This document shows, one piece after another, positions 4,125-63,910 of a stretch of 64,000 nt of DNA. Source of the DNA: Pyrinomonadaceae bacterium (GTDB taxonomy: Bacteria; Acidobacteriota; Blastocatellia; Pyrinomonadales; Pyrinomonadaceae); the NCBI GenBank assembly GCA_046313635.1, contig JBKBYA010000013.1, forward strand, positions 9,795 through 73,794, in the 5' to 3' direction. The notes under the pieces are model-generated. The model was not told the origin of the DNA. It worked only from the letters and a program-made list of their open reading frames with translations, and made no database searches. The position numbers were made by a program, and so were the translations under genes. How positions within the stretch are numbered: the first letter of the stretch is position 1; every line of letters begins with the position of its first letter.

Positions 4125-4163
4125 AAAACTAGCTGACAGCTAATAGCTGTCAGCTAGTTTTTT
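4125..4163. terminator. Bidirectional hairpin terminator between convergent gyrA and ruvB
   Basis: Perfect 17-bp stem aaaactagctgacagct / agctgtcagctagtttt with a 3-nt loop. A-run on one side and T-run on the other. Confidence 0.7.
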
Positions 4164-4182
4164 ATGCGCGATGTTCGACCTC

Positions 4183-5211
4183 TCATTCAAATAGAGGCGT
4201 AGCCTGCGCTGGCATGTTGAGGCCGAAGTGTTCGTAGGCCCGGCGTGTCGCCATTCGGCCGCGGGGCGTGCGGTTGAGAAAGCCGATCTGCATCAGATAG
4301 GGCTCGATGATCTCCTCGATCGAGTCCTTTTCTTCGTGGATAGACGCCGAGAGCGTGCCGAGACCGACCGGGCCGCCGTCGAATTTTTCGATGATCGTGA
4401 GCAGCATCTTGCGGTCCATCTCGTCGAGGCCGAACGTGTCGACCTCCATCCGGTCGAGCGCGGCTCGGGCGACCGGCTCGTCGATGTGGCCCTCATAATC
4501 GACCTCGGCAAAGTCGCGCACGCGGCGAAGCAGACGGTTCGCGATACGCGGCGTCCCGCGCGAGCGGCGTGCGATCTCGTGCGCTCCCGACTCGTCGATC
4601 GAGACGCCGAGAATGCCTGCCGAACGCTCGACGATCGTGCGGAGGTCTTCGATCTGGTAAAAGTCGAGATTGAAGACGATCCCGAATCTTCCGCGCAGCG
4701 GCGCCGTGATCATCCCGGGCCGCGTCGTCGCCCCGACGAGCGTGAACTTTGGCAGCTCAAGCTTGATCGAACGCGCGGCCGTGCCCTGGCCGATCATAAT
4801 GTCGAGGCTGTAATCCTCCATCGCCGGATAGAGGATCTCCTCGATCGCCGGGTTGAGACGATGGATCTCGTCGATAAAGAGCACGTCGCCCTCCTGCAGG
4901 TTGGTCAGGATGGCGGCGAGGTCGCCGGCCTTTTCGATGATCGGCCCGGCGGTCGATCTGAGCTCGGACGCCATCTCGTTGGCGACGATGTTTGACAGCG
5001 TCGTCTTGCCGACGCCGGGCGGGCCGGTCAGCAGGATGTGGTCGAGAGACTCACGGCGCTTGAGCGCGGCCTTCATAAAGACGCGGAGGTTCTCTTTGAT
5101 CTTTTTTTGCCCGATATACTCGGCCAGACGTGTCGGCCGCAGAGACAGCTCGAACTGTTTGTCCTCGTCGAGCACACCGCCGCGAACTTCTATGTTGGAA
5201 GAATTCTCCAT
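4183..5211 (-). CDS. ruvB: Holliday junction branch migration helicase RuvB
   Basis: Walker [16 protein letters not shown], RuvB C-terminal winged helix. Start trimmed to MENSSNIEV (cat at 5209-5211). Confidence 0.95.
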
Positions 5212-5215
5212 CGAA

Positions 5216-5980
5216 TCAGAACAATAATCCTTTGTGCCCCAGCGCCAAAATGTCCATCGATAATGCCACCGTGCAGTGCAGCACGAGGCCCATCCAGATA
5301 TTGCCGGTGCGGTAGCTGAGCCAGCCGAGGAATATGCCCGCGACGATCGCGGCAAATGCCTCCGGCATCGGCTTGCCGAGATGGATCATCGTGTAGGGCA
5401 CCGTCATCACAAAGACCGAGTAGACGCCGAGCGACCGCTTTAGGCTGTGGATTAAAAAACCTCTGAAAAAGAACTCAAGCCCGAAGAACTGCAAAAAGTA
5501 CATCAGCTCCCAAACCGCGAGCGTCCAGCCGATGTACGGGTCGCCGTTGTAGATCTTCAGGAACGGATATCGCGATGCAAAGCCCTCGGTCGTCGACATC
5601 CAGTAGACGAGCGGCAGCATGACCGCGACGCATTGCGCGAGCAGCGGCCAGAAGCCTGGTTCGATCCGCAGGCTGAGCCCGAGGTCCGCGAGTCGGCCGC
5701 GGAACATTCTACGGACGATCACGGCTGGCAAGCCGACGTAAAAGACCATCGTCACGGCGGCCCAATAGCCGAGCAGTCGAATATTGCTGGCGTGCGGCTC
5801 GAGTATCCACGCGGCCGCATGATCGAGCGCCGGGGCGAACTTTGCGGCTGCCTCGACAAAGTCGGCGTTCTTGAAATAAAAGATCGCCGTCAGCCCGAAA
5901 GCGGCGTAAACGAGAGCGATCACGGCGCGTCGATCGAGCAGCTCGATGTCGTCGCGTAGCTTTGCGATGAGTTCAAACAT
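5216..5980 (-). CDS. CPBP family intramembrane glutamic endopeptidase (CAAX protease-like)
   Basis: Polytopic membrane protein with EExxxR-like motif (GLEFFFRG) and downstream His motifs (IHLG, LHCT). Sits between ruvA and ruvB. Confidence 0.8.
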
Positions 5981-5995
5981 CGAACGAGCGGCAGA

Positions 5996-6613
5996 TCATT
6001 TTGCCAGCAGCTGCAGGCCGCGTCGGAGGAGCTTCTGGACCGAAACTTCGGTGCCGTCCTGCACCGCCTGCTTGAGAGCTTTTTCCGCCATGCTGCGCTG
6101 GTAGCCGAGATTGACGAGGGCCGAAAGCGCGTCGTCGAATACAGCATCCGCCGGCAGCTGAGAGCTCGCGGCGGAACCTGCCGCGACGGCGCGTGCGGCT
6201 CCCTCTGACAGCTCGCCGATCTTGTCGCGGAGCTCGATCACGAGCCGCTCGGCGGTCTTTTTGCCGACGCCCGGGATCGAGGTGATCCGTGCGAGGTCCT
6301 CCGTGCGGATGGCCAGGATCAGCTCGTCGGCACTCATTCCGGAGAGAAAAGCGATGCCCGACTTTGCGCCAATGCCCTGTACCGAGATGAGCTTGAGATA
6401 GAGCTCGCGCTCGCGGGCCGTCTTAAAACCGAAAAGCTGGATCGCATCTTCTCGAACGTGCGTGTAGATGCGCAGGCTCACGTCCGAACCGACGTCGCCG
6501 AGCTCGTAATAGGTCGAGAGCGGGACCGTGATCTCGTAGCCGACACCGCCGACATCGACGATCACGACATTTGCATATTTCTCGAGGAGCTTGCCTGACA
6601 GGGATCCGATCAT
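5996..6613 (-). CDS. ruvA: Holliday junction DNA helicase RuvA
   Basis: MIGSLSGKL..VDVGGVGYEI.. and HhH motifs (LISVQGIGAKSG, IPGVGKKTAERL). Start trimmed to ATG at 6611-6613. Confidence 0.93.
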   Translation of the reverse strand: MIGSLSGKLLEKYANVVIVDVGGVGYEITVPLSTYYELGDVGSDVSLRIYTHVREDAIQLFGFKTARERELYLKLISVQGIGAKSGIAFLSGMSADELILAIRTEDLARITSIPGVGKKTAERLVIELRDKIGELSEGAARAVAAGSAASSQLPADAVFDDALSALVNLGYQRSMAEKALKQAVQDGTEVSVQKLLRRGLQLLAK

Positions 6614-6888
6614 TGTTTCACGCGTGCAACACAATTGTAGAGTAAACCTCAGCGCGGGGCAAAGCATTCGACCCGGGTCACGCTTCGTCCGCTCCCGAGC
6701 GATCGCCGCTGACCGACCCGCACGGGGCTAGATCTTTCCCGAGCACCGAAATCCTTGGCCTCGGCGATAGAAACGAGTAATATGGGCTTACGGCTATTGC
6801 TTCTCGGTCGCAGGCACGATGCCCGCGGGCCGATCTGATCCGGTTGCGGCGGCGCAAGTCGTCTTAGAAGTTTTGAAAAGAGGTTTTT

Positions 6889-7212
6889 ATGCGTAATAGC
6901 GTTTTTGTTAAGCGGGTCTTGCCGTTCTTCCTAGCCCTTGCAGCAGGTCTGTACGTCGCAAGCTTCTTTGTGGACATAATGCCGCGATTCAATGCGAGCG
7001 ATCGCAGGATCGAGGGCTGCCGCGAGATGCAGCGACTGCGGATCGAGAATGACGAGCTGCGTCGCCAGAATCAGGACCTCCGCGACGAGGTCGATAGTTA
7101 CAGATTCAGCCGTCCGACGTCAGCGCATGGTGTGCCTCGGAGCGATTGGGGAACGTCGCGATTTGAAGTTCCGCCCCCGCCGACGGTGACGTCGCCGCGA
7201 ACCGTGAGATAG
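6889..7212 (+). CDS. Hypothetical membrane-anchored coiled-coil protein
   Basis: N-terminal TM helix (VLPFFLALAAGLYVASFFV) followed by a heptad-rich segment (MQRLRIENDELRRQNQDLRDEV). No family recognised. Confidence 0.4.
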   Translation: MRNSVFVKRVLPFFLALAAGLYVASFFVDIMPRFNASDRRIEGCREMQRLRIENDELRRQNQDLRDEVDSYRFSRPTSAHGVPRSDWGTSRFEVPPPPTVTSPRTVR

Positions 7213-7323
7213 CGGCACGCTGACCTTTCAAACTGGCCACGGATTAACCCGACCGTACGGTTGTGTTAATCTGTGGCTTCGTTTTTTGGTCCGCCCGACA
7301 TTCTGCCGTCGGCGGACGTTTCT

Positions 7324-8127
7324 ATGGACGAGTCTCAAGCCCGAAAAGAAATTGTCGAGATCGGCCGCCTGATGTACGAGCGGAGCTACGTCGTCTCGTC
7401 GGACGGCAACATCAGCGTGCGTCTTGACGATAATACCGTGCTCGCGACGCCGACGATGACCTGCAAGGGGCGAATGACCGAGAACTCGCTTGCGCTTACC
7501 GATATGGAAGGCAAGCCCCTGTCGGACAAACGGGCATCGTCCGAGCTGGCGATGCACCTCTTGATCTATCGCGAGCGGCCTGACGTCAAGGCGGTCTGTC
7601 ACGCTCACCCGCCGCACGGAACGGCTTTCGCCGTTGCCGGGCTGGCGATCGACAAGCCGATACTCTCCGAAGTGATCCTGACCCTGGGCTGCGTGCCGCT
7701 GACCGAGTACGGTACGCCTTCGACATCGGAGCTGACCGAGGCGATGAAGCCTTACGTTACGCATCACAACGCGCTCCTGATGGCCAATCACGGCGCGGTC
7801 GCGTACGGCGAAGACCTGTGGCAGGCTTGGGACCGTCTCGAGACGCTCGAGCACACCGCAAAGATCGCGATCCTCGCAAAGGCGCTCGGCGGTGCCAACG
7901 ACCTGCCGACCGATGCGATCGAAAAGCTGATCAGCATTCGCGAAAAGGCCGGTTATCTAAAAGAGAACGCCCGCTGCCAGGCCTGCGGCTACCTGCATAC
8001 GGCCGGCATCGCGTGCGACCTCGACGTCGAATATCCAGGAGCGGCGGGCTCCAACGGCGCGGCTAGAATTTCGTTCACGCGCGAAGAGCTGATCGAGCTT
8101 TTGAGCCAGGCGGCGCGATTGAGTTAA
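7324..8127 (+). CDS. Class II (FucA/RhaD-type) aldolase with C-terminal encapsulation-peptide-like extension
   Basis: Catalytic Glu context SSELAMHLLIY and Zn ligands HAHPPHG and MANHGAV. Extra ~65 aa tail with a Cys pair (CQACGYLHTAGIAC), ending in amphipathic helix FTREELIELLSQAARL. Start trimmed to MDESQARKEIVEIG. Confidence 0.85.
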   Translation: MDESQARKEIVEIGRLMYERSYVVSSDGNISVRLDDNTVLATPTMTCKGRMTENSLALTDMEGKPLSDKRASSELAMHLLIYRERPDVKAVCHAHPPHGTAFAVAGLAIDKPILSEVILTLGCVPLTEYGTPSTSELTEAMKPYVTHHNALLMANHGAVAYGEDLWQAWDRLETLEHTAKIAILAKALGGANDLPTDAIEKLISIREKAGYLKENARCQACGYLHTAGIACDLDVEYPGAAGSNGAARISFTREELIELLSQAARLS

Positions 8128-8178
8128 ACTGACTTCACTTCAAATCCCGTTTTTTAACGATTCAGGAGCAAAAACTAA

Positions 8179-8457
8179 ATGCAGGAAGCATTAGGAATGG
8201 TCGAGACCAAAGGTCTCGTGGCGATGATCGAGGCAGCCGACGCGATGGTCAAGGCCGCGAATGTGCAGCTCGTCGGTTACGAAAAGATCGGCGCCGGATT
8301 TGTCACAGCCATCGTTCGCGGTGACGTCGCCGCCGTCAAGGCCGCGACCGACGCCGGCGCCGCCGCCGCCCGCCGCGTCGGCGAGCTCGTCAGCGTACAC
8401 GTCATCCCGCGTCCGCACTCAAGCGTCGACGAGACACTGCCGGTCGTAATGAAATAG
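8179..8457 (+). CDS. Bacterial microcompartment shell protein, hexamer type (BMC-H)
   Basis: [55 protein letters not shown] is the canonical PduA/EutM/CcmK fold signature. Confidence 0.93.
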
Positions 8458-8530
8458 TGGTCAGTGATCCGTGGTCAGTGGTCAGAAATTTCTGATACTG
8501 ACCACCGACCGCTGACAACCGACCACTGAC
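8458..8530. repeat. Heptamer-array hairpin (unit TGGTCAG / CTGACCA)
   Basis: tggtcag tgatccg tggtcag tggtcag, then loop, then ctgaccaccgaccgctgacaaccgaccactgac. Fills the entire BMC-H / BMC-P gap. Confidence 0.75.
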
Positions 8531-8800
8531 ATGATCATCGGACGCATTTTAGGCACCGTCGTTTCGACGCAGAAGGACCCGCGGCTCAGCGGCAAGAAGC
8601 TGCTGATCGTAAAGCCCATTAACCTCGACGGCTCCGACCAGAGCGGATACGTCGTCGCGGTCGATACGGTCGGCGCGGGCTTTCATGAAAAGGTGATCGT
8701 CGTCGGCGGCTCGTCGGCACGCATGGCCGAGGGCAACAAGGATTGCCCGGTCGACTCCGCGATAATCGGCGTCATCGACACCATCGACTTCACTTCATAG
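8531..8800 (+). CDS. BMC vertex protein, pentamer type (BMC-P) 1
   Basis: MIIGRILGTVVSTQKDPRLSGKKLLIV..VAVDTVGAGFHEKVIVVGGSSAR..DSAIIGVID is the EutN/CcmL signature. Confidence 0.9.
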   Translation: MIIGRILGTVVSTQKDPRLSGKKLLIVKPINLDGSDQSGYVVAVDTVGAGFHEKVIVVGGSSARMAEGNKDCPVDSAIIGVIDTIDFTS

Positions 8801-8805
8801 ACCCC

Positions 8806-9087
8806 GTGCAAATTGCCCGCGTCATCGGAACCGTTGTCTCGACCGTCAAAAACGAAACGCTCGAGGGCCGAAAGTTCTTGATCGTCCAGACGCTCGACGC
8901 CGATCTCAAACCTAAGGGATCGCCGCAGGTCGCGCTCGACGCGGTCGGAGCCGGCATCGGCGAATTGGTCTTCTGGTGCCGAGGAAAGGAAGCATCGTTT
9001 CCGTTCAAGCGCGACGAGACGCCGACCGACTGCACTATCGTCGGGATCATCGACTCGGACGCGCACGTTTATAACGGCGAGGGATGA
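8806..9087 (+). CDS. BMC vertex protein, pentamer type (BMC-P) 2
   Basis: GTG start (VQIARVIGTVVSTVKNETLEGRKFLIV..DAVGAGIGELV..DCTIVGIID). The track ORF start at 8743 overlaps the previous gene and was trimmed. Confidence 0.85.
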   Translation: MQIARVIGTVVSTVKNETLEGRKFLIVQTLDADLKPKGSPQVALDAVGAGIGELVFWCRGKEASFPFKRDETPTDCTIVGIIDSDAHVYNGEG

Positions 9088-9262
9088 ATGGTAAGAGGCA
9101 AACTGTAAGCGGTAAATGTTAGGTCGCACGGCGTAAATGGTGAATCGTAAATCGTAAATGAATTGCTTACGGTCATACCAGGTAGTTGGAGTCAAAAATT
9201 TACCGTTTACCAGTTACCTCTTACCGTTCACCATTCACCACTGACACTTCACCGCTAAAGAG
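9088..9262. repeat. Heptamer-array hairpin (arm unit GGTAAAC/GGTGAAT, inner GTAAATC array), related to 58398..58875
   Basis: Left arm ggtaagaggcaaactgtaagcggtaaatg pairs with right arm atttaccgtttaccagttacctcttacc. The inner gtgaatcgtaaatcgtaaatgaattg is the reverse complement of the core of the 58.4-kb element. Confidence 0.75.
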
Positions 9263-9264
9263 AG

Positions 9265-9558
9265 ATGTTGATCGCCAGAGTCATCGGTAATGTCGTCGCG
9301 ACGCAGAAGAATCAGCGTTACGAGGGAACGCGCGTGATGCTCTGCCGGCAGATCACGCCCGAGGGCCAGGACATGGATTACACCTGCCTCGCGCTCGACT
9401 CGGTCAACGCCGGCGAAGGCGACATCGTCGTCATCGCGCAGGAAGGCTGGTCGGCATCGACCGCTTCGACCGGGCGGCCCGGAGCGGCGATCGACTCGGC
9501 GATCGTCGGTATGGTGGATTACATCGATCTGCTGGGGACCGATCTCTCCAGTGAATAG
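9265..9558 (+). CDS. BMC vertex protein, pentamer type (BMC-P) 3
   Basis: MLIARVIGNVVATQKNQRYEGTRVML..DSVNAGEGDIVVIAQ..DSAIVGMVD. Confidence 0.9.
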   Translation: MLIARVIGNVVATQKNQRYEGTRVMLCRQITPEGQDMDYTCLALDSVNAGEGDIVVIAQEGWSASTASTGRPGAAIDSAIVGMVDYIDLLGTDLSSE

Positions 9559-9621
9559 TTAGTAGTGGGTAGTTGTTAGTTAAGAAACCAACTACCCACT
9601 CTCCACTTTTAACTATTAACT
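9556..9621. repeat. Heptamer-array hairpin (unit AGTTAGT-like / AACTA-like)
   Basis: agttagt agtgggt agttgtt agttaag, then loop, then ccaactacccac..ttaactattaac. gtgggtagttg pairs with caactacccac. Confidence 0.65.
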
Positions 9622-9633
9622 GAAAAAACGTGT

Positions 9634-9993
9634 ATGGCTGACAGTATCGTCCTCCAGAAATCGATAAAGTTCGCCCTCAGGATCGTCGGTCTATACAAAT
9701 ATCTAACCGAGCAGAAACAGGAGTTCATCCTCTCCAAACAGGTTCTTCTTTCCGGAGCCTATATCGCCAAACACGTCAAAGCCGAGCTTCACGCACGCGG
9801 GCGAGACAGGTTCTCCGCGGACATGTTTGTCGCGATGCAAAAGGCTTTGGAGACAGAACTCTGGCTGCTGCTGCTGAAGGAGGCCGAATTTATCAGCTCG
9901 GACCAGTACGACTCGATGAACGCGGATTGCGTCGAGCTGATCAAGCTGACATCATCGATCTCTAAGACCTCATACGAAAATGAAACAGCGTGA
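9634..9993 (+). CDS. Four-helix-bundle protein (23S rRNA intervening-sequence protein / Avd-like family), divergent member
   Basis: 119 aa, all-helical, colinear with the clearer family member at 19150..19509 (..KFALRIVGLYKYL..LSKQVLLSGAYIA..ELWLLLLKEAEFIS..). Confidence 0.7.
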   Translation: MADSIVLQKSIKFALRIVGLYKYLTEQKQEFILSKQVLLSGAYIAKHVKAELHARGRDRFSADMFVAMQKALETELWLLLLKEAEFISSDQYDSMNADCVELIKLTSSISKTSYENETA

Positions 9994-10297
9994 ATCGCTC
10001 GCCGAAAAGATCGCCCAGCTTATCGAGTCAGAGAGGCCGCAGCCCGCTGACCTTGCGTCGATCTTTGCGAGCATCGAAAAATTGAATCATCGGCTCGACA
10101 AGCTCGAGTCCTCGCTTTCTCAGAATTCCGCAGCCCGCGTTTCCCATTCGGCGCATCCGAGCGTTGAGAGGTTCAATGTCGCCGAGGCGATCGCCGACGC
10201 TCTCTTCGACGCCAAGACAAAAGAAAAGGCCTGCACGTTCGAGCCGAACGCGAGGCCTTGCGATAACTGCGGGTTGTGCAGCTCCCGCGGATTCTAG
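9980..10297 (+). CDS. Hypothetical protein with amphipathic N-terminal helices and C-terminal Cys cluster
   Basis: Overlaps the previous gene by 14 nt (operonic). N-terminus ESLAEKIAQLIESE, C-terminus CTFEPNARPCDNCGLC (C-x9-C-x2-C-x2-C). No family recognised. Confidence 0.5.
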   Translation: MKQRESLAEKIAQLIESERPQPADLASIFASIEKLNHRLDKLESSLSQNSAARVSHSAHPSVERFNVAEAIADALFDAKTKEKACTFEPNARPCDNCGLCSSRGF

Positions 10298-10953: not shown

Positions 10954-11027
10954 AGCTTCACTCCTCTAAAGACTCCAAACAGATATCGTATCCAAAACCA
11001 AGTAACGAACGGGAGCAACTTACGGGA

Positions 11028-11753: not shown

Positions 11754-11810
11754 CTCGTTCTAGTTGTGATCGTGATGTTCACCACCTGCCTGTCCACGGA
11801 TCACCGTCAA

Positions 11811-12725: not shown

Positions 12726-12785
12726 TAAAATAATTTTGCCAGATATGGGTTGAATACGAAAGAAATGGTCCGGGCGTTCCGCGAG

Positions 12786-14588
<1,803 letters not shown>

Positions 14589-14594
14589 CGGTAG

Positions 14595-14676
14595 AAAGGA
14601 TAAAGGATGAAGGATGAAGGATAAAGGGAAGAGCGGCGATCGTGCGGCCGCGGTCCCTGATCCTTCATCCTTTAAG
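14595..14676. repeat. Heptamer-array hairpin (unit AAGGATG / CATCCTT) between SRP RNA and dnaX
   Basis: aaggata aaggatg aaggatg aaggata aaggga, then a 24-nt GC loop, then tccctgatccttcatcctttaag. Confidence 0.8.
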
Positions 14677-14682
14677 AAACTG

Positions 14683-14785: not shown

Positions 14786-14791
14786 ATGTGA

Positions 14792-14869
14792 ATTTTGGAT
14801 TTTAGATTTTGGATTGTCGAAAAACGGTCGCTTACTTCAATCCGAAATCCGAAATCTAAAATCCAAAAT
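14792..14869. repeat. Heptamer-array hairpin (unit ATTTTGG / CCGAAAT) between tRNA-Ser and SRP RNA
   Basis: attttgg attttag attttgg attg, then loop, then caatccgaaatccgaaatctaaaatccaaaat. Confidence 0.8.
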
Positions 14870-14874
14870 CGATC

Positions 14875-14965: not shown

Positions 14966-14966
14966 G

Positions 14967-15048
14967 GGAATTAAAAATTCCAAATTTCAAATTCCAAATT
15001 TAGGCTTGCCTCGATCAATCTGGAATTTGGAATTTGGAATCCTTAATC
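14967..15048. repeat. Heptamer-array hairpin (unit AAATTCC / GGAATTT) between the two tRNA-Ser genes
   Basis: aaattcc aaatttc aaattcc aaattta, then loop, then tggaatt tggaatt tggaatc. Same unit type as 24592..24636. Confidence 0.8.
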
Positions 15049-15053
15049 GATCG

Positions 15054-15144
<91 letters not shown>

Positions 15145-17837: not shown

Positions 17838-19109
17838 ATGAAGACACTACTGGCGATCATCCTTACGCTCACGTGCTCGGCATTCGCTTTTTCGCAGACC
17901 GATCAGGCAAAGCGCGTCGCCGAGATCCAGGCCGCGCTGCAAAAGGCGAAACTCGACGGCTGGCTCTTTTACGATTTTCGCGGCAGCGACATTTTGATCC
18001 CGCGGATACTGCGCTCCGAGCGTATGAGCGGCTCGCGCCGCTGGTATTACTACGTCCCGGCGAGGGGCGAGCCGACCAAGGTCGTTCACGCGATCGAGCC
18101 CGAAAGGCTCGACGCGCTGCCGGGCAAAAAGCTTATCTATCGCGAGTGGCAGCTGATCAATTCAAATCTGAAGCAGGCGATCTTCGGCACCGCGAAGGGC
18201 AAGACGACCGCCCGCCGGCCGCGCGTCGCGATGCAGTACTCGCCAAACAACGACATCCCGTACATCTCGCGGGTGGACGCGGGCACGGTCGAGATGGTCC
18301 GCTCGCTCGGCGTCGACGTCGTCACGAGCGCCGATCTCGTTCAGCAGTTTGAGGCGGTCTGGACGCCCGAGCAGCTCGCGATGCACAACGAGGCCGCGGC
18401 GAAGATGCAGAAGATAATTCTCGAGACGTTTGCCGAGATCAAGCGGCGGATCAGCGACGATGTGCCGACAACCGAGATCGACATTCAGCAGTTCATGATG
18501 AAGCGCTACGGCGAGGTCGGCATGCAGCCGTCGCCGATGATCGTTGCCGTGAACGCAAACGCCGCCTCGCCGCATTACTTTCCGACAAAGGAGCGCAACT
18601 CGCCGATCCGCCGCGGCGACCTCGTGCTGATCGACACGGTCAGCAAACTCGCCAAGCCAAAAGCTCCGGCCGTCGATATGACCTGGGTCGGCTACGTCGG
18701 CGAGACCGTGCCGGAGGAATACACGCGGATCTGGAACATCGTCTATGAAGCGCAGCAGGCGGCGTTTAATTTTGTGCGCGATTCGTTTCGCGCCGGTAAG
18801 CCGATCCGCGGGGCCGACGTTGACGACGTCGCCCGCGGCATCATCCGCCGGGCCGGCTACGCGGACCGGTTCCTGCACCGCACCGGCCACTCGATCGGCG
18901 AAGAAGGTCACGGCAACGGCGCCAATATCGACAATCTCGAGACGCGCGACACGAGGATACTAATTCCCGGAACGGCATTCTCGATCGAGCCGGGGATCTA
19001 TCTCGAGGGCAAATTCGGCATCCGCTCGGAGATCGACGTGTACGTCAGCGACCGCGATGCCGTCATCACCGCGCCGCACCAGACCGAGATCATCGCGATA
19101 ATGAAATAG
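17838..19109 (+). CDS. M24 family metallopeptidase (Xaa-Pro aminopeptidase-like), secreted
   Basis: Signal peptide. Metal-ligand motifs DTV..D, HRTGHSIG, FSIEPGIY, SEID. Confidence 0.9.
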   Translation: MKTLLAIILTLTCSAFAFSQTDQAKRVAEIQAALQKAKLDGWLFYDFRGSDILIPRILRSERMSGSRRWYYYVPARGEPTKVVHAIEPERLDALPGKKLIYREWQLINSNLKQAIFGTAKGKTTARRPRVAMQYSPNNDIPYISRVDAGTVEMVRSLGVDVVTSADLVQQFEAVWTPEQLAMHNEAAAKMQKIILETFAEIKRRISDDVPTTEIDIQQFMMKRYGEVGMQPSPMIVAVNANAASPHYFPTKERNSPIRRGDLVLIDTVSKLAKPKAPAVDMTWVGYVGETVPEEYTRIWNIVYEAQQAAFNFVRDSFRAGKPIRGADVDDVARGIIRRAGYADRFLHRTGHSIGEEGHGNGANIDNLETRDTRILIPGTAFSIEPGIYLEGKFGIRSEIDVYVSDRDAVITAPHQTEIIAIMK

Positions 19110-19143
19110 CTGTCAGCGGTCAGCTTTCAGCGTTCGGCAGCGG
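19110..19143. repeat. Heptamer array (unit GGTCAGC), left flank of four-helix-bundle gene
   Basis: ctgtcagc ggtcagc tttcagc gttcggcagc. Complementary array at 19491..19528. Confidence 0.7.
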
Positions 19144-19149: not shown

Positions 19150-19509
19150 ATGAAAGACTTTAGGAAGTTAGCCGTTTGGCAGAAGTCCCATGAATTAGCT
19201 TTGGCGGTCTACTCGGTCACCGGCACTTTTCCGAGAGAAGAGATGTTTGGACTGACAAGCCAATTGAGACGTGCAACAGCGTCGATTCCTGCAAATATCG
19301 CGGAAGGTTGCGGTAAAGCGACGGATTCGGACTTTGCGCGTTTCCTTCAGATCGCGTTTGGTTCGGCGTGCGAAGTTGAATATCACTTAATCCTATCGCG
19401 GGATCTGCGGTACATCGGCGGAGAGAAATACGAGGAATTAAACACTGGCCTCGTCGAGATAAAGAGAATGCTCGCGTCGCTGATTTCCACGGTCAGGGCT
19501 GAACGCTGA
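19150..19509 (+). CDS. Four-helix-bundle protein (23S rRNA intervening-sequence protein / Avd-like family)
   Basis: KLAVWQKSHELALAVYSVTGTFPREEMFGLTSQLRRATASIPANIAEGCGK..FLQIAFGSACEVEYHLILSRDL is a textbook family signature. Confidence 0.9.
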   Translation: MKDFRKLAVWQKSHELALAVYSVTGTFPREEMFGLTSQLRRATASIPANIAEGCGKATDSDFARFLQIAFGSACEVEYHLILSRDLRYIGGEKYEELNTGLVEIKRMLASLISTVRAER

Positions 19510-19528
19510 CCGCTGAAGGCTGAGAGCT
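19491..19528. repeat. Heptamer array (unit GCTGACC), right flank; overlaps the last codons and stop of the four-helix-bundle gene
   Basis: ggtcagg gctgaac gctgacc gctgaag gctgaga gct. The TGA stop lies within the gctgacc unit. Confidence 0.7.
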
Positions 19529-19534
19529 TACACT

Positions 19535-24591: not shown

Positions 24592-24636
24592 CCCAAATTC
24601 AAAATTTGAAATCTGGAATTTGGAATCTAAAATTCC
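24592..24636. repeat. Heptamer-array hairpin (unit AAATTCA / GGAATTT) filling the folC-gpmA gap
   Basis: ccaaattcaaaattt, gaaat, ctggaatttggaatctaaaattcc. Confidence 0.65.
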
Positions 24637-24640
24637 TCAT

Positions 24641-28593: not shown

Positions 28594-28594
28594 A

Positions 28595-38740: not shown

Positions 38741-38897
38741 GGGTTGGTTGTTTGTTCGTGGTTCGTTGATCGTGGTTCGTTGTTCGTTGTTCGTGGTTCG
38801 TTGTCAACCTGCGAACAATCAGCGATGAGCCACGACCGATTTACTACGAACAACAAACGACGATCAACGATCAACGATCGACGATCAACGAACAGCC
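38741..38897. repeat. Heptamer-array hairpin (unit GTTCGTT/GTTCGTG; complement CGATCAA/CGAACAA)
   Basis: gttcgtg gttcgtt gatcgtg gttcgtt gttcgtt gttcgtg gttcgtt, then loop, then ..cgaacaa caaacga cgatcaa cgatcaa cgatcga cgatcaa cgaacag. Confidence 0.8.
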
Positions 38898-50424: not shown

Positions 50425-51039
50425 ATGAGCGCCTCACGATCCGAGCTTTTCCGAGAGTTTTACCTGCAGGCACAGGCGTGCCGCGTCTGCCCGGACCTTG
50501 CCGACAAGACCGCCGTTCTGAGCGAGCTTAACGGCAATCTCGCGCCGCGCGTCTTCTTTATCGGCGAGGCCCCGGGCCGGCAGGGGGCCGACCGCACGCG
50601 GCGGCCCTTCTACGGCGACAAGTCGGGCGCGAACTTTCAGCAGCTGCTCGACTCGATCGGGCTGAAGCGCGAAGACATCTTTATCACGAGTGCCGTGATG
50701 TGCAGCCCGCGTTCGGCGACCGACGCCAATCGCAGACCGACGCGCAGCGAGATCAAAAATTGCTCGACGCACCTTCGCCGCACGATCGAGCTCGTCGATC
50801 CGCCGCTGATCGCCACGCTCGGCAGCGTCGCGCTCGAGTCGCTCAAGCTGATCGAGCCGCACGACCTCACGCTCAAAATTCACGCAGGCACCGTCAACCG
50901 CTGGAACGGCCGCACGCTCGTTCCGCTCTATCACCCGAGCCCGCAGGTCATCGCATCGCAGCGCGGCCTCGCGCTGCAGCTCAAACACTTCGCGACGCTC
51001 GCTAGCTTGATCGATCCCTTCGGAATAACTGAGAACTGA
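50425..51039 (+). CDS. Uracil-DNA glycosylase superfamily protein (family 4-like)
   Basis: CRVCPDL.., FFIGEAPGRQG, ..LYHPSP... The last 6 codons and the stop lie in the left arm of a heptamer hairpin. Confidence 0.85.
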   Translation: MSASRSELFREFYLQAQACRVCPDLADKTAVLSELNGNLAPRVFFIGEAPGRQGADRTRRPFYGDKSGANFQQLLDSIGLKREDIFITSAVMCSPRSATDANRRPTRSEIKNCSTHLRRTIELVDPPLIATLGSVALESLKLIEPHDLTLKIHAGTVNRWNGRTLVPLYHPSPQVIASQRGLALQLKHFATLASLIDPFGITEN

Positions 51040-51088
51040 TAGCGAGAAGAAGTTGTCAGTTATCAGCTATCAGTTATCACTTATTCCG
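51021..51088. repeat. Heptamer-array hairpin (unit AACTGAT / CAGTTAT) overlapping the 3' end of the UDG gene
   Basis: cggaataactgagaactgatagc, then loop, then gtcagttat cagctat cagttat cacttattccg. The arms match at 21/23 positions. Confidence 0.8.
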
Positions 51089-51152
51089 AAAGTGTCCCGT
51101 TTTCATTTTCCCGACCCGGCAGAATAAACTGACAACAAGACAGCAGCGATAG

Positions 51153-52372: not shown

Positions 52373-52410
52373 GTAATTATTGATTGAACAATTAGTAATT
52401 AGTAATTAAC
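52373..52410. repeat. Weak AT-rich heptamer-array hairpin (unit AGTAATT)
   Basis: gtaattattgattg, aa, caatt agtaatt agtaatt aac. Arm pairing is only approximate. Confidence 0.4.
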
Positions 52411-52417
52411 TATCGAA

Positions 52418-58397: not shown

Positions 58398-58875
58398 TCG
58401 TTAGTGGTGAAGCGTGAAGCGTGAAGTGTGAACGGTGAATGGTGAGTGGTGAACGGTGAACGGTAAACGGTAAATGGTGAACGGTGAACGGTAAACGGTA
58501 AACGGTAAACGGTAAACGGTAAGCGGTAAACGGTAAATGGTGAACGGTGAACGGTAAATGGTGAACGGTGAACGGTAAACGGTAAGTGGTAAATGAAGGA
58601 TGCCATTCACAATTCACGATTTACGAGTCACGATTCACTATCCGCTCAAGTCTGTCCATTCACCATTTACCATTTACCGCTTACCGTTTATGAACGGTGA
58701 ACGGTGAACGGTAAACGGTAAGTGGTAAATGAAGGATGCCATTCACAATTCACGATTTACGATTTACGAGTCACGATCCGCTCAAAGCTGTCCATTTACC
58801 ATTTACCATTTACCACTTACCGTTTACCACTCACCACTTACCGTTTACCACTCACCACTCACCCTTCACCGTTAA
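58398..58875. repeat. Duplicated composite heptamer-array element (arms GGTGAAC/GGTAAAC, conserved ~65-nt core) between the kinase and regulator genes
   Basis: Unit 1: ~190-nt GGT[A/G]AAC array, core aaggatgccattcacaattcacgatttacgagtcacgat..ccgctcaa..ctgtcc, then a 33-nt GTTTACC-type array. Unit 2 (58690-58875): 40-nt array, the same core, then an 80-nt complementary array. 58470-58530 holds six near-perfect cggtaaa heptamers. Confidence 0.9.
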
Positions 58876-60700
58876 CCACGGGTAGCTCTATCGTAAACCT
58901 GCTTCCGCGCCCCGATCCGCTTTCGGCGGTGACGCGGCCGCCGTGGGCTTCGGCGATCTGTTTTACGAGCGAGAGGCCGAGGCCGCTGCCGTGGATCTGC
59001 GCGTCGACGACCGTTCTTGACCTGTAAAAAGGCTCGAATACATGTTTCAGATCAGCGCTCGATATGCCGATCCCGCGGTCTTCGACGACGATCTTCACCG
59101 TGCCGCCGCCGTTCGCCGCCGAGACCCTGATCCATCTTTGCCCGTTGGCGTACTTGACCGAGTTCGCGATGAGGTTTTGGATCGCCCTATTCAATGCCGC
59201 CTCGTCGGCCGAGACCGACGGCAGCGCCGGCGGGATGTCGGTCTCGACCGCAAAGCCCTCAGACTCGAGCAGCGGACGGCTGTCGTCGACGGCCCGTGCG
59301 ACAAGCGACGCGATGTCGACCGGGCGAAAGTTGTACTTCTGCCGGCCCGAATTTGCCCCGGCAAATTCGAGTATCTGCTCGACCATCGCCGAAAGTTTTT
59401 TACCCTCGCCCTTGATCAGCCGGCCGTAACGCGCGACCTGTGATCCGTCTTTTGCGACGCCGTCGGCGAGATTTTCGCCGGCGGAGTAGATCACCGCGAG
59501 CGGCGTGCGGAACTCGTGCGAGACGCTCGAGACAAAATCGACCTGCCGCTGGGCGAAAAGCCTCGCCCGCGCAGACGAGACGATGATCCCCGCGACCGCC
59601 GCGCCGAGCAGAGCGAGAATGCCAAATCCGACACCAAGATTTCGCCATTCGGTCTTCGCCACCGACGCGGCGACCGAACCGTCGCGGTGCCGCGCAGTGA
59701 GCGTCCACGGCGGCGGCTCGCCCGTTCTCGTTCGGGTCGCGATCATCGACGCTCTCGCCGGACCGTTCTGCTTCATCTCGACGGTCACCTGGCCGGTCTT
59801 TGCAACGCGCTTTTCGATCTGGCTGAACGAGTGCGTTTCGAGCCGCGAATCAAAAACTACGGTGCCCGGCCTTTTATCGCCGCCGCCGATCGACGAGAGC
59901 ACGTCGCGATTAGAAAAGAGAATGAAGTTCTCCGCCGACAGATCGAAGAGCCTCGCCCGCGCATCGCCGTCGCCGGCTGCTGCGTCGACCGGCACAGATC
60001 GATATTCGCTGCGGCCCGCGCCGTCGTCGACCGATATCGCAAACTCGCCGTCGCCAAAATGCCGGTCGGTGAGATCCGGCAGCAGGCGTCCGGTGATGGT
60101 CGACTTGTCGAGGCGGATCGCGAGATAGCCGACGGTCTTTGGTCTGGGGAGGGGCGGCGACGCTTCGTCGCCGCGCGTGCGGCGGATAAAGATGCGCTCG
60201 ATCTTTGGCGGAGCCTCGCTGATCGGCAGCACGAGCGTCGAGATGTCGGCGAGGACCGGCGTGAACGTATCGCCCGCGCCGATGCGCGAGCGCAGCGTGC
60301 GAAGCTCGTCGTTCCACGCTGCCTGCTCAAACCGGGCGCCGTCGGCGCCGCTGTGAACGAGAGGTTCGGCATCTTCGCTTTCGGCGTCGAAATATACAAA
60401 GCCCGCGACGAGCGTCGGGTACTGCGTCTTCGACCGCCAGTAGGCCAGTCGCTCGTTGAACTCGCTCCAGTCGCGGTCTCGCCACGACAGCGCGTCGGTC
60501 TGAAAGTTGAAATACGCGCCCTGCATCTCGCGATTGAAATCGCTCGCAAATCGCGTCGTCGCTTCGTGCACGCGCCGCTGCATCTTTTCGGCCTCGCTCG
60601 CGCTGATCTGCCGCTGCCAGCGGAACTGCAGCGCGCCGAGCAGCAACAGCAGTCCGACGAGCGCGGCAAAGAGCAGGATTGTCGAGAGCGATCGCTTCAT
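58859..60700 (-). CDS. Sensor histidine kinase (HisKA + HATPase_c)
   Basis: H-box FVSSVSHEFRTPL, N-box NLIANSVKY, G-boxes DRGIGI and GSGLGLS. Start trimmed to MKRSLSTILL. The last 6 codons (VVNGEG) and the stop derive from the repeat. Confidence 0.9.
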   Translation of the reverse strand: MKRSLSTILLFAALVGLLLLLGALQFRWQRQISASEAEKMQRRVHEATTRFASDFNREMQGAYFNFQTDALSWRDRDWSEFNERLAYWRSKTQYPTLVAGFVYFDAESEDAEPLVHSGADGARFEQAAWNDELRTLRSRIGAGDTFTPVLADISTLVLPISEAPPKIERIFIRRTRGDEASPPLPRPKTVGYLAIRLDKSTITGRLLPDLTDRHFGDGEFAISVDDGAGRSEYRSVPVDAAAGDGDARARLFDLSAENFILFSNRDVLSSIGGGDKRPGTVVFDSRLETHSFSQIEKRVAKTGQVTVEMKQNGPARASMIATRTRTGEPPPWTLTARHRDGSVAASVAKTEWRNLGVGFGILALLGAAVAGIIVSSARARLFAQRQVDFVSSVSHEFRTPLAVIYSAGENLADGVAKDGSQVARYGRLIKGEGKKLSAMVEQILEFAGANSGRQKYNFRPVDIASLVARAVDDSRPLLESEGFAVETDIPPALPSVSADEAALNRAIQNLIANSVKYANGQRWIRVSAANGGGTVKIVVEDRGIGISSADLKHVFEPFYRSRTVVDAQIHGSGLGLSLVKQIAEAHGGRVTAESGSGRGSRFTIELPVVNGEG

Positions 60701-61982: not shown

Positions 61983-61994
61983 TCCCCGTTCGAA

Positions 61995-62027
61995 GGGCGG
62001 GCGAGGCGGGGCGACCCGCCTTTTTTT
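61995..62027 (+). terminator. Intrinsic terminator
   Basis: gggcggg-cgaggcggggcga-cccgcc followed by T7. Confidence 0.75.
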
Positions 62028-62167
62028 CGTTTACGCGACGGCCTTGCCGGCCCGCACCTTCGCGGCACACGCATCCCGCCCGCAGACCATCAAAACCGGC
62101 GAATTTGTTATAATTTACGCTCCGGAGGAAGGTCAGTATCAGCAATATCCACGGCTTCACAAAAGGG

Positions 62168-63910
62168 TTGAAGCAAAACCAGCTCAAGCGCATCGAACGC
62201 CTCGCCACGCGGCGCGTCGCTCCCGATCAGATCATTTCACCCGAGCTTGCACGGCAGATGACCGAGATCTCGCACGAGACCAATCGGCAGGTCGGCGTAC
62301 TGCTCAATCGCAAGGGCCAGGTCGAGTACGTTATGGTCGGCACAGCGAAGCAGATCGAGATGCCCGACTTTGGCCGCGCCCGCGTGTCGGCCGACCGCTT
62401 CCGCGGACTCCGATGCGTTCACACGCACCTGCTCGGCGAAAAGCTCACGCAGGACGACCTCACCGACCTCGCCCTGCTGCGCCTCGACCTGATGTCGATC
62501 ATCCAGGTCGATAGATCAAACGGCCTGCCCGGTCTCGTCCACTCGGCGCACCTCGTACCGGCCCAGCCGGGTTCCGAGTTCGGGGTTCAGCGTTCCGGGG
62601 CGAACGGGCACTCTGAACTCGAAACCCCGAACTCTGAACTGCGAGGCTCTGACTCGCTCCCGTACGAATTCCTCGAGCCCGCGATCCCGGCCCATCTCGA
62701 GACCGACTTTCTCTCGCTGATCAACTCGCTCGAGGACGAGATGGCACGCGTCCGCCAAACGGCGCGCAGCCGGCAGGCAAACCGCGACCGGGCGATCCTG
62801 ATCAGCGTCACGACCGGCAGCACGGACGATGCCGCGGAGTCGCTCGCGGAGCTCGAGGAGCTCGCCGCGTCGGCGGGCGTCTTTGTCCTCGACAAGATCA
62901 TCCAGCGCCGCCCGCAGATCGATCCGCGAACCGTGCTCGGCCGCGGCAAGCTCGACGAGCTGCTCATCCGCTCGATGCGGCTCGGCGCGGATATGATCAT
63001 CTTTGACGCCGAGCTCGGCCCGGCGCAGGTGCGTTCGCTCTCGGAGGCGACCGAGCTCAAGGTCATCGACCGTCCGCAGCTCATCCTCGACATCTTTGCG
63101 CAGCGCGCGCAGAGCCGCGAGGGCAAGCTGCAGGTCGAGCTGGCGCAGCTCAAGTATCTTTTGCCCCGGCTGGTCGTCGGACAAAACTCCGCATTCTCGC
63201 GGCTTGCCGGCGGCATCGGCGGACGCGGGCCCGGCGAGACCAAGCTCGAGACAGACCGGCGCCGAGTGCGCGACCGCATCTCGCAATTGGAACGCGCCGT
63301 CGACGACCTCGGCCGCCAGCGGCAGGAGCGCCGCAAGAACCGCGTTCAAAAGCACCTGCCGATCATCTCGCTCGTCGGCTACACCAACGCCGGAAAATCG
63401 ACCCTGCTCAACGCGCTCACGCAATCGGACGTTTACGCCGAGCAGAAGATGTTCGCGACGCTCGACCCGACGTCGCGCCGACTGCGTCTGCCGTACGAGC
63501 AGGAGGTCATCATCAACGACACGGTCGGCTTCATTCGCGATCTGCCCGCAGCACTCGTCTCGGCGTTTCGCGCGACGCTCGAGGAGATCGCCGACAGCGA
63601 CCTGCTGGTTCACGTCGTCGACGCGTCAAATCCGCGCGTCGAGCAGCAGATCGGATCGGTCGAGGGCATTCTCAAGGAACTCTCTCTCGACCGCATTCCG
63701 CAGGTGCTCGTGCTGAACAAGTCAGACCTCATCGCGGCCGACGATCTCGACGCGCTGCGGCGCAGGGTGATGCTTGACAGGAGTGCGGAATGCGTGGCAA
63801 TTTCAGCTATCCGCCGGGATACCCTCCGTCCGCTGGTGGAAGCGATGGCAGTCAGGATAGGCATGTTCTCGGTACCGAGCGACGAGGTCGCGGCGGCCGG
63901 CAATCTTTAG
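62168..63910 (+). CDS. hflX: GTPase HflX (long form with ~190-aa N-terminal extension)
   Basis: HflX N-domain (..LILDIFAQRAQSREGKLQVELAQLKYLLPRL) and G-domain (GYTNAGKST, DTVGF, NKSD). TTG start assumed. Confidence 0.92.
   Translation: MKQNQLKRIERLATRRVAPDQIISPELARQMTEISHETNRQVGVLLNRKGQVEYVMVGTAKQIEMPDFGRARVSADRFRGLRCVHTHLLGEKLTQDDLTDLALLRLDLMSIIQVDRSNGLPGLVHSAHLVPAQPGSEFGVQRSGANGHSELETPNSELRGSDSLPYEFLEPAIPAHLETDFLSLINSLEDEMARVRQTARSRQANRDRAILISVTTGSTDDAAESLAELEELAASAGVFVLDKIIQRRPQIDPRTVLGRGKLDELLIRSMRLGADMIIFDAELGPAQVRSLSEATELKVIDRPQLILDIFAQRAQSREGKLQVELAQLKYLLPRLVVGQNSAFSRLAGGIGGRGPGETKLETDRRRVRDRISQLERAVDDLGRQRQERRKNRVQKHLPIISLVGYTNAGKSTLLNALTQSDVYAEQKMFATLDPTSRRLRLPYEQEVIINDTVGFIRDLPAALVSAFRATLEEIADSDLLVHVVDASNPRVEQQIGSVEGILKELSLDRIPQVLVLNKSDLIAADDLDALRRRVMLDRSAECVAISAIRRDTLRPLVEAMAVRIGMFSVPSDEVAAAGNL
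62568..62646. repeat. Heptamer-array hairpin embedded IN FRAME in hflX
   Basis: gggttcc gagttcg gggttca gcgttcc, then loop ggggcgaacgggcac, then tctgaac tcgaaac cccgaac tctgaac. gagttcggggtt pairs with aaccccgaactc. Encodes PGSEFGVQRSGANGHSELETPNSELRGS. Confidence 0.8.

Follow-up and report, generated by a model that had tools for sequence, protein, structure and literature searches.

Gene boundaries along a stretch of 64,000 nucleotides from a Pyrinomonadaceae bacterium (Acidobacteriota; contig JBKBYA010000013.1 of assembly GCA_046313635.1, positions 9,795 to 73,794 of the forward strand), hereafter called the window, are occupied by tandem degenerate copies of a 7-nt unit followed by copies of the complementary heptamer, and the question is what kind of element these inverted arrays represent. 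Our analysis revealed that they are best filed as hairpins with heptamer stems of the type known from the short tandemly repeated repetitive elements (STRR sequences) of cyanobacteria and from the intervening sequences (IVSs) of 23S rRNA, here in Acidobacteriota and outside rRNA. It also revealed that genes of the family PF05635, named for the '23S rRNA intervening sequence protein' (IVP), lie inside such heptamer stems in at least four phyla, namely Acidobacteriota, Chloroflexota, Cyanobacteriota and the phylum of an alphaproteobacterium.

Heptamer Arrays, Their Folding and Their Placement

Arrays of period 7 were detected by Tandem Repeats Finder at 8456, 9132/9199, 14595, 14792/14839, 14975/15017, 19498, 24602, 38754/38860, 51051, 52390, 58406-58870 and 62567/62610, that is, at nearly every coordinate at which the initial annotation had described one shared architecture. 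A periodicity scan of the window over periods 2-15 returned nine long runs at period 7 (528 nt) and five at period 14, which are the same arrays, as against 0-1 run for each period that is not a multiple of 7, while no long period-7 run appeared in 20 dinucleotide shuffles of the window. Arrays with a complementary array within 150 nt amounted to eight pairs at period 7, compared with 0, 1, 0, 0 and 0 pairs at periods 5, 6, 8, 9 and 10, respectively. The enrichment of period 7 over other periods that had been anticipated was thus confirmed, runs and inverted pairs being found essentially at this period only, and the excess lies in the complementary pairs, not in isolated direct period-7 arrays. 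Nearly all of the strong intergenic inverted repeats of the window have period-7 arms.

RNA folding gave z-scores from -4.3 to -7.3 for ten of the 12 sites (4120-4170, 8452-8535, 9084-9232, 9545-9626, 14590-14680, 14786-14874, 14966-15054, 38745-38894, 51015-51095 and 62560-62648), with none of 200 shuffles equally stable, so the expectation that the arms pair better than shuffled controls held at these ten. The remaining two sites fold weakly (24588-24642, z -0.95; 52366-52417, z -1.8, with 2.7 copies), and together with the two-unit palindrome at 4124-4162 they are the marginal members of the family; at 24592, where an inverted array had been proposed, an array does exist but forms no convincing hairpin, and the hairpin proposed at 52373 is weak. 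Instead of the short loop described earlier, a 360-nt gene lies between the two arms at 19107-19142 and 19491-19530, which nevertheless pair (duplex -51.6 kcal/mol, z -6.3) and enclose the IVP gene at 19150-19509. Over two of the hairpins, that at 8455-8531 being one of them, a contig assembled independently from a different sample (L170) matches the window base for base, and they are therefore not assembly artefacts. Overall, the family is real, and it is defined by its architecture and its period of 7, not by a common sequence.

The hairpins occupy spacers of a microcompartment operon (BMC-H and three EutN genes), of the minus-strand series tRNA-Ser(cga)/tRNA-Ser(gga)/signal recognition particle (SRP) RNA/dnaX, and other co-directional gaps. 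They start at the upstream stop codon or a few nucleotides away, and they usually end no more than about 35 nt, in many cases no more than about 10 nt, ahead of the next start codon, or else adjoin an RNA gene; these stop-to-start positions agree with the initial annotation, in which the hairpins were said to begin near stop codons and often to fill the intergenic gap. Because they abut both stop and start codons, little room is left for a promoter or a Shine-Dalgarno site. Most of the hairpins have no T-tract, their loops range from 8 to 114 nt, and a terminator scan of 4000-20000 flagged none of the hairpins there. T-runs were read manually, since paired flanks interfered with automated scoring after the outermost predicted pair, and they were seen only at 4124-4162 in the window and, as 4-7 T, after five of about 15 SRP RNA-to-dnaX hairpins of relatives (L018, L019, L020, L021 and L025).

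Hairpins in Orthologous Spacers of Related Genomes

A dnaX scan of species-representative genomes provided 80 loci, 32 of them from Blastocatellia and 48 from other taxa. Inverted period-7 pairs occurred at 1.47 per 10 kb in the former as against 0.09 in the latter, and the architecture thus occurs lineage-wide in Pyrinomonadaceae/Blastocatellia. The order tRNA-Ser/tRNA-Ser/SRP RNA/dnaX is conserved in Blastocatellia, and in about 15 species a heptamer hairpin occupies the SRP RNA-to-dnaX spacer, which is about 100 nt in length, with varying units such as AAAGGAT (the window), GTGATGA, GTGACAG, GGTGAAT, CGTAAAT and ACTCAGC. In one relative (L002), a direct AAAGGAT array lies right upstream of dnaX, with no inverted partner detected and the SRP RNA gene about 2 kb away.

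In the microcompartment operon, hairpins were found in the identical two spacers of four genomes, with a unit family that drifts gradually. The hairpin of the spacer between BMC-H and the first EutN gene (8455-8531) is kept in L171, L172 and L174, with the stop codon TAG as the first paired triplet in all four genomes, and that of the spacer from the third EutN gene to the IVP gene (9549-9622) is likewise kept in all four. From RNAalifold, compensatory double changes were found at 6 of 25 pairs in the former spacer and at 3 of 25 in the latter, counts that rest on four sequences only. The compensatory changes between arms of orthologous spacers, for which a comparison had been proposed, were therefore observed; across genera, the hairpin keeps its position and its two arms vary in concert.

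Sporadic heptamer hairpins were also seen outside the class, in a member of Terriglobia (L047, 2786-2958 and 6446-6678) and in one of Nitrospirota (L067, 841-926), one of them lying between the SRP RNA gene and dnaX, so the phenomenon is not strictly limited to one class. In Fibrobacter succinogenes (L085, 2867-2985; L086, 2903-2985), C-rich direct arrays of CTACTGC/CTACTTC followed by AACCACC lie directly upstream of dnaX; they have no inverted partner and are closer to the TAACTGA repeats of Beggiatoa than to the hairpins. The long tRNA-Ser-to-SRP RNA spacers of relatives (600-2300 nt) gave no PF05635 match in a hidden Markov model scan, and unusual cargo in them was rejected by eye, as their open reading frames (ORFs) look ordinary (membrane, secreted, TPR) and recur across species.

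IVP Genes inside Heptamer Stems

The window contains two PF05635/TIGR02436 genes (9634-9993 and 19150-19509), and both are tied to hairpins, a link that was missed in the initial annotation. The IVP, 119 aa in length, is a bundle of helices for which no catalytic activity is known; the family forms a four-helix bundle related to Avd of diversity-generating retroelements, and a PADLOC search for membership in a defence system gave no match for it. In Pyrinomonadaceae, the gene at 9634-9993 has a syntenic position at the end of the microcompartment operon. The gene at 19150-19509 is syntenic upstream of an inositol monophosphatase gene in L002 and L005. The Acidobacteriota genomes other than that of the window in which its type is syntenic are two, namely a second metagenome-assembled genome (MAG) of Pyrinomonadaceae and one labelled Chloracidobacterium sp., and a homologue from Anaerolineales lies in a different gene neighbourhood; inverted AGCNNTC-type arrays flank the gene in both of these Acidobacteriota relatives and in the Anaerolineales genome. 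The tRNA-Ser-to-SRP RNA hairpin of L005 (6320-6810) holds an IVP gene in its loop, while the hairpin at that position in the window and in L002 is free of any ORF, and in L043 another IVP gene is bracketed by heptamer arms.

The association extends well beyond these genomes. Among metagenomic IVP homologues with both flanks available, a period-7 array was found at the 3' end in 66 of 76, at the 5' end in 51 of 76 and at both ends in 46 of 76, and the density of arrays in these loci was 7.48 per kb beside the gene compared with 0.20 per kb elsewhere; no extra IVP paralogue was found in the flanks of 80 metagenomic loci. A search of 72,556 plasmids returned IVP homologues in 25 records, 22 of them cyanobacterial, and inverted heptamer arrays bracket the IVP gene at 14 of the 16 plasmid loci fetched, the other two having arrays with a period of about 8 nt. 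The plasmid units include CAGGAGT, GACAGGT, GGGTGTA, AAGGGAA, GCAGAAG, GTAGGGA and AGCTAAA, with GACGGAT in Azospirillum. Several of the plasmid IVP genes lie within cas operons, an occurrence that has been noted before (PMC3936711). Across 86 loci, the distance between IVP proteins was correlated with the distance between the units of their 3' arms (Mantel r = 0.60, with 0 of 2000 permutations as high). The placement of the IVP gene inside a heptamer stem is thus observed across the phyla named above, and that PF05635 genes characteristically ride in heptamer stems is apparently an unreported finding: the literature searched yielded no paper that links heptamer arrays to the PF05635 genes at large, nor any account of such hairpins in Acidobacteria.

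Some further observations concern individual IVP loci. A 105-aa ORF at 9980-10297, with no Pfam or NCBIfam match, overlaps the end of the IVP gene at 9634-9993, and an ORF of 86-104 aa overlaps the IVP gene in the same manner in L171, L172 and L174; the 105-aa ORF may be a partner of this IVP clade. On plasmid pANA02 of Anabaena sp. 90 (L191), three copies of TTGGTAA were observed at 10106-10131 between the avd and reverse transcriptase genes of a diversity-generating retroelement, and every other heptamer array of this plasmid is of the local IVP unit GACAGGT and lies within about 1.2 kb of the IVP gene in the cas operon. On a plasmid of Pseudanabaena galeata (L176, 167-863), the IVP gene lies between cas6 and cas4 with arrays of more than 100 nt on both sides, about 16 AAAGCTA upstream and AAAGCCA downstream in direct orientation, and shorter inverted arrays are found further upstream, the motif being expanded here to an extreme degree. 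Most IVP homologues lie on contigs of about 1 kb, and L001, a Logan short-read contig, ends at the array upstream of the response regulator gene, which suggests that heptamer arrays routinely break metagenome assemblies.

Unit Vocabulary

The initial annotation had regarded the unit as specific to each locus, but this was at most partly borne out. Counting exact canonical units against a composition-matched null, we obtained 82 distinct units over 128 array loci, where about 119 would be expected by chance, and units such as AATCGGC/AATTGCC, AAAGGAT, AAAATCC and AAATGGT were found again at non-orthologous loci and in other genomes. A limited unit vocabulary therefore recurs across loci, genomes and phyla. 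Single-linkage clustering of the units at one mismatch was discarded as uninformative, as it chained all of them into one cluster. The related proposal, that the arrays arise in situ or by concerted evolution of the arms and not by copy-paste, stands only in part: both arms do change together, but orthologous sites can be empty and the arrays co-diverge with a cargo gene. Modules may instead have been inherited or moved as wholes, which is no less likely than their generation purely in situ.

Individual Elements and Other Features of the Window

The elements of the window and the two IVP genes are listed in Table 1, and a few details of single elements are given here. The palindrome at 4124-4162 sits in the gap between convergent genes and is terminator-like. 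In the spacer between BMC-H and the first EutN gene, the ATG lies 2 nt past the stem and the whole spacer is filled. The outer arms of the nested hairpin at 9085-9240 (GGTAAGA/GGCAAAC/TGTAAGC/GGTAAAT, pairing with ATTTACC/GTTTACC and similar units) enclose an 80-nt loop that holds an inner CGTAAAT array, and the hairpin at 9549-9622 overlaps the EutN stop codon. The 3' arm at 19491-19530 ends 5 nt ahead of the next start codon. The array at 24592-24640 fills its spacer, and L005 has the identical unit at the orthologous site. The long hairpin at 38747-38894 has units GTTCGTT and GTTCGTG pairing with ACGAACA and ACGATCA; for the protein encoded at 38456-38740, no record was found in a look-up for close relatives. 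The hairpin at 51019-51090 overlaps the end of the upstream ORF and is followed by 63 nt before the next start codon. In the compound element at 58403-58879, about 25 copies of GGTGAAC/GGTAAAC and the complementary arrays of CCATTTA/CCACTCA occur along with ATTCACG as another type of unit, with higher-order units of 28 nt and with a duplication of 136 nt. At 62567-62640, GGGTTCC, GAGTTCG and GGGTTCA pair with CTGAACT, CGAAACC and CCGAACT. The HflX ORF at 62168-63910 shows Pfam domains only from residue 224 on, and the true hflX start codon probably lies past this hairpin, through which gene callers would extend the gene.

Table 1. Heptamer elements and IVP genes of the window, with coordinates counted from its first nucleotide.
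Feature	Position	Strand	Details
Palindrome AAAACTAGCTGACAGCTAA-T-AGCTGTCAGCTAGTTTT	4124..4162	+	Two 7-nt units per arm; A-tract and T-tract flanks; -27.7 kcal/mol, z -6.9
Hairpin, BMC-H to first EutN spacer	8455..8531	+	Unit (A/C)GTGGTC and complement; z -6.7
Nested hairpin between two EutN genes	9085..9240	+	z -7.3
Hairpin, third EutN to IVP gene	9549..9622	+	Units AGTTAGT, AGTGGGT, AGTTGTT; z -5.2
PF05635 23S_rRNA_IVP / TIGR02436 four-helix-bundle gene	9634..9993	+	Directly after the 9549-9622 hairpin
Hairpin, SRP RNA 3' end to dnaX start codon	14595..14675	-	Unit AAAGGAT/ATCCTTT; z -6.9
Hairpin, tRNA-Ser(gga) to SRP RNA	14789..14872	-	Unit GATTTTG/CAAAATC; z -6.0
Hairpin, tRNA-Ser(cga) to tRNA-Ser(gga)	14970..15047	-	Unit GGAATTT/AAATTCC; z -5.5
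5' arm AGCTGTC AGCGGTC AGCTTTC AGCGTTC	19107..19142	+	Starts at M24 peptidase stop codon
PF05635/TIGR02436 Avd-like four-helix-bundle gene	19150..19509	+	In loop of heptamer stem
3' arm GCTGAAC GCTGACC GCTGAAG GCTGAGA	19491..19530	+	Covers last IVP codons and stop
Degenerate AAATTTG/GGAATTT array, spacer upstream of gpmA	24592..24640	+	Hairpin not significant, z -0.95
Long hairpin, DUF3592 gene to biotin carboxylase gene	38747..38894	+	Arms 44-51 nt; z -6.2
Hairpin, TAACTGA-type arms	51019..51090	+	GGAATAACTGAGAACTGATAGC with CAGTTAT CAGCTAT CAGTTAT; z -5.5
Short AT-rich AATTAGT array, partial complement	52373..52410	+	Weak member; z -1.8
Compound element, histidine kinase stop to response regulator start codon	58403..58879	-
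GC-rich hairpin upstream of probable true hflX start	62567..62640	+	z -4.3

Other repeats of the window belong to different classes. Upstream of tRNA-Ser(cga), at 15197-15370, a GC-rich 39-nt direct repeat (GGGCAAAAGAGCCCGCCCGCTTACGCGGGTGGTTCTGAC) is present in 2.1 copies and represents a non-heptamer family; its palindromic core recurs in inverted orientation at 15212-15229. Inside the ORF at 27337-28743, a 25-nt inverted repeat (GGAGCGCGGACATTCCTGTCCGCAT) at 28595-28727 has 83 nt between its arms and no period-7 structure. The region 40400-49200 has a lower GC content (0.55-0.57) and gaps that are unusually long (533-681 nt). Heptamer hairpins are absent from it although non-coding DNA is ample, and its encoded proteins show CarboxypepD_reg, SpaA-like, subtilase and NlpC/P60 domains; the 16 copies of GGCGTC (or 3.3 copies of a 24-mer) at 44722-44819, in the minus-strand subtilase gene at 44094-46025, are a coding repeat unrelated to the hairpins.

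Comparison with Known Systems

Like the STRR sequences, the window elements consist of tandem 7-nt units that are intergenic, lie within operons, form hairpins and vary between strains, and the cyanobacterial IVP genes fetched here are bracketed by STRR-like heptamer arrays. Unlike STRR, the host is an acidobacterium, the source being a MAG of Pyrinomonadaceae (Blastocatellia), nearly every array of the window belongs to an inverted pair that fills a stop-to-start gap, and there are many more unit types. Of the units of the window, only GTGGTCA (8456-8485) comes within one mismatch of STRR2 (TTGGTCA), and all others differ from the canonical units STRR1-3 (CCCCAGT, TTGGTCA and CAACAGT). The initial annotation had named STRR as the nearest analogue and had added that these repeats were not described as obligate inverted pairs; hairpins formed by the 7-bp STRR repeats have already been described between the co-transcribed genes hupS and hupL of several filamentous cyanobacteria, with a function in transcript stability or translational coupling suggested (PMC2670836). 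Heptamer hairpins inside operons are therefore not new as such.

The second likeness is to the 23S rRNA IVSs with an S23p ORF, as in Coxiella and Leptospira. In Coxiella, the IVS carries the S23p ORF and a 28-bp terminal stem, two to three GACAGAT repeats of strain-variable number stand right before the ORF start codon, and RNase III has been shown experimentally to cleave in the stem at the first repeat (PMC4990558). The elements at 19107-19530, in L005 and L043 and on the plasmids share the stem of complementary termini with an S23p/IVP ORF in the loop, and the tandem heptamers upstream of the ORF start codon were also observed. In contrast to the IVSs, the elements occupy mRNA, tRNA and SRP RNA spacers and not helix 9, 25 or 45 of 23S rRNA (no rRNA gene was found in the window), and unlike the IVS of Coxiella most copies have no ORF, as is true of many published IVSs, and their arms reach 25 units.

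TAACTGA heptamer repeats of Beggiatoaceae, some Cyanobacteria and Bacteroidetes end just before start codons (PMC4679880, MacGregor 2015). They resemble the window hairpins in occupying spacers without canonical ribosome-binding sites and in being patchy across phyla, and their unit forms the arms at 51019-51090; they differ in being direct repeats of one unit, with one inverted case among 170 sets, whereas here the arrays are inverted and the units many. Repetitive extragenic palindromic (REP) sequences and REPINs, for which roles in mRNA stability and termination have been proposed (PMC3733652), are likewise short intergenic hairpin repeats that are abundant in some lineages, with a cognate gene between inverted copies. 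However, REPs keep one non-tandem sequence of 20-40 bp with a GTAG or CGTC head, whereas the arms here are tandem arrays with about 82 units over 128 loci, and the REP-associated tyrosine transposase (RAYT) is a Y1 transposase, whereas the gene flanked here encodes a four-helix bundle; no transposase was found among those ORFs of the window that were scanned. The features of clustered regularly interspaced short palindromic repeats (CRISPR), namely repeats of 24-48 nt with unique spacers, were not found, the units being 7 nt long, contiguous and paired with an inverted array.

Proposed Mechanism and Alternative Explanations

The reading to which we give an even chance is that these elements are dispersed IVS/STRR-type stem-loops in transcribed spacers that are cut by RNase III and grow by slippage. 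Each element would be a spacer insert inside a transcription unit, with two complementary arms of degenerate heptamers. Being transcribed with their operons, the hairpins would form 20-45 bp of double-stranded RNA, and the stems, by analogy with the S23p IVS of Coxiella, would be generic substrates of RNase III. Cleavage, or a looping-out that joins stop and start codons at the base of the stem, might make the insert harmless to the operon; the insert might also be useful for separating tRNA, SRP RNA and dnaX and for uncoupling the stabilities of cistrons, while the minority with T-tracts could serve as terminators. The arrays would lengthen and shorten by slipped-strand mispairing of the 7-nt units, with the arms drifting together, and because a stem built of tandem repeats re-pairs after slippage on either arm, the design may persist. 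The higher-order units of 14, 21, 28 and 136 nt and the strain variation of Coxiella support such growth by slippage. ORF-less hairpins would then be the cargo-free form of the IVP-bearing element.

Several points weigh against this reading. Transcription across the hairpins and their cleavage by RNase III are steps that we infer, and the value 7 of the period is not accounted for. Occupied gaps in the window amounted to 12-13 of 39 co-directional, 0 of 7 divergent and 1 of 4 convergent, and this co-directional preference is not significant (p = 0.25). Several related species have an empty spacer of 30-45 nt or an ordinary terminator (L014) at the SRP RNA-to-dnaX site, from which it follows that the hairpin is dispensable and turns over. 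The sense strand folded better in 18 cases and the antisense strand in 19 (p = 0.47), with 87 versus 72 G-U pairs; wobble asymmetry as a sign of selection on the transcribed strand was therefore rejected, as both strands fold equally well, and maintenance of the arms at the DNA level fits equally. As regards the IVP link, most hairpins of the window lie 10-40 kb from any IVP gene, so that the link to the cargo may be historical rather than functional. The metagenomic sample is of one IVP clade, and the Mantel correlation is somewhat inflated because the 3' arm covers the final codons of the IVP gene.

An unlikely alternative is that the elements are selfish repeats at the DNA level, similar to REPINs or miniature inverted-repeat transposable elements (MITEs), being non-autonomous and moved, copied or maintained by a dedicated protein (possibly the IVP paralogue for the unit in question) or by gene conversion, with the RNA structure as a by-product and with hairpins persisting in operon spacers since they are least harmful there. 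The variable presence of hairpins between species at one spacer, some with wholly different units, would agree with this, as would the limited unit vocabulary across non-orthologous loci, genomes and phyla, folding without strand asymmetry, and the breaking of short-read contigs at arrays. IVP genes between inverted copies of their own unit, with unit and protein co-diverging, resemble RAYTs with REPs, and on two small cyanobacterial plasmids most arrays are of the local IVP unit (within about 1.2 kb on pANA02, with one 2.7 kb away in Geminocystis). Nevertheless, no transposase, RAYT or integrase accompanies the hairpins in the annotated parts of the window, the candidate protein is a small bundle with neither known catalysis nor a PADLOC match, target-site duplications are not evident at the junctions, and descent of the syntenic IVP genes seems to have been vertical; the retained unit family of the microcompartment operon, with its gradual compensatory drift, fits vertical descent under structural constraint.

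A broader proposition, which we hold as speculative and rather improbable, is that each IVP paralogue recognises its own unit and helps to propagate, protect or process its stems, so that S23p-bearing 23S rRNA IVSs, STRRs and the acidobacterial hairpins would form one cross-phylum system of ORF-bearing (autonomous) and ORF-less elements. The logic would be comparable to that of RAYT and REPIN, but here in transcribed spacers and with a protein that is not a transposase.

It is more doubtful that the arrays are regulatory binding sites, in which a protein that binds single-strand or duplex RNA (cold-shock, S1 or the pentameric IVP) would take one unit per monomer, compete with the hairpin and tune mRNA stability or, for the downstream cistron, the initiation or coupling of translation. 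The hairpins do abut start codons without a Shine-Dalgarno site, with the stop codon paired at the base of the stem, and IVPs are mostly basic (median pI 9.1); S1, Csp or CsrA has been proposed for TAACTGA repeats that end 1 nt before the start codon, with CspB binding one heptamer per monomer (PMC4679880), and the TAACTGA unit is present in the 51019-51090 hairpin. Start triplets are scarce in the arm next to the downstream start codon (0.025 versus 0.086 per position) and stop triplets frequent in the arm after the upstream stop codon (0.091 versus 0.030 per position), which would also suit such regulation, but this bias arises because one arm is G-rich and the other C-rich, holds on either strand and is not independent evidence. 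Of 37 hairpins, 31 have their G-rich arm on the 5' side (p = 4e-5); as a marker of transcription polarity this was rejected, since an arrangement of an arm, a loop and the reverse complement of the arm keeps its arm order on both strands, and the bias is thus an intrinsic handedness that is uninformative on the transcribed strand. Moreover, hairpins of the identical type stand between tRNA and SRP RNA genes where there is no translation, the units are too diverse for one sequence-specific binder, and the hairpins are missing at the orthologous site in some relatives.

Slightly less probable again is a neutral mutation bias specific to the lineage, in which 7-nt polymerase slippage and template switching in quasi-palindromes would inflate short palindromes of non-coding DNA that have no function. 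Heptanucleotide repeats are generally in excess in prokaryotes, being the most abundant longer simple repeat in many of them, and polymerase slippage has been proposed as the explanation (summarised in PMC4679880). The higher-order units are typical of slippage or unequal exchange, repeat number differs among Coxiella strains, folding shows no strand asymmetry and the hairpins are dispensable at orthologous sites, all of which would suit such a bias. It sits poorly with the enrichment in complementary pairs instead of isolated direct arrays, with position and pairing that are kept across genera through compensatory changes, with the exact fit of the hairpins between stop and start codons, with the tight tie of the arrays to one gene family across phyla, and with the absence of hairpins from the long non-coding gaps at 40-49 kb. 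Finally, that the hairpins are Rho-independent terminators or attenuators built from repeats is very improbable: the A-tract/stem/T-tract between convergent genes at 4124-4162, the T-runs of the five relatives and the ordinary terminator of L014 would fit, but the general lack of T-tracts, the loop lengths and the negative scan do not, and with downstream genes starting 0-25 nt after the stem, without space for a promoter, an efficient stop would silence dnaX, the shell-protein genes, gpmA and others.

Implications

Heptamer STRRs have been targets of cyanobacterial fingerprinting since 1990 without their function ever being established, rRNA IVSs and their S23p ORFs have been unexplained for more than 30 years, and the large PF05635 family, for which structures have been solved, lacks an assigned role. 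The present analysis ties these three together, with a gene inside the stem and a unit that co-diverges with the protein, and with ORF-less copies that occupy stop-to-start junctions as well as tRNA/SRP RNA spacers across a soil lineage of wide distribution. There are practical warnings as well: short-read assemblies break at the arrays, true start codons can be obscured by them (as probably at hflX), and they may be taken for terminators or CRISPR-like repeats. The outcome is a concrete and testable model, in which RNase III would process the spacer elements and a protein cargo would be optional.

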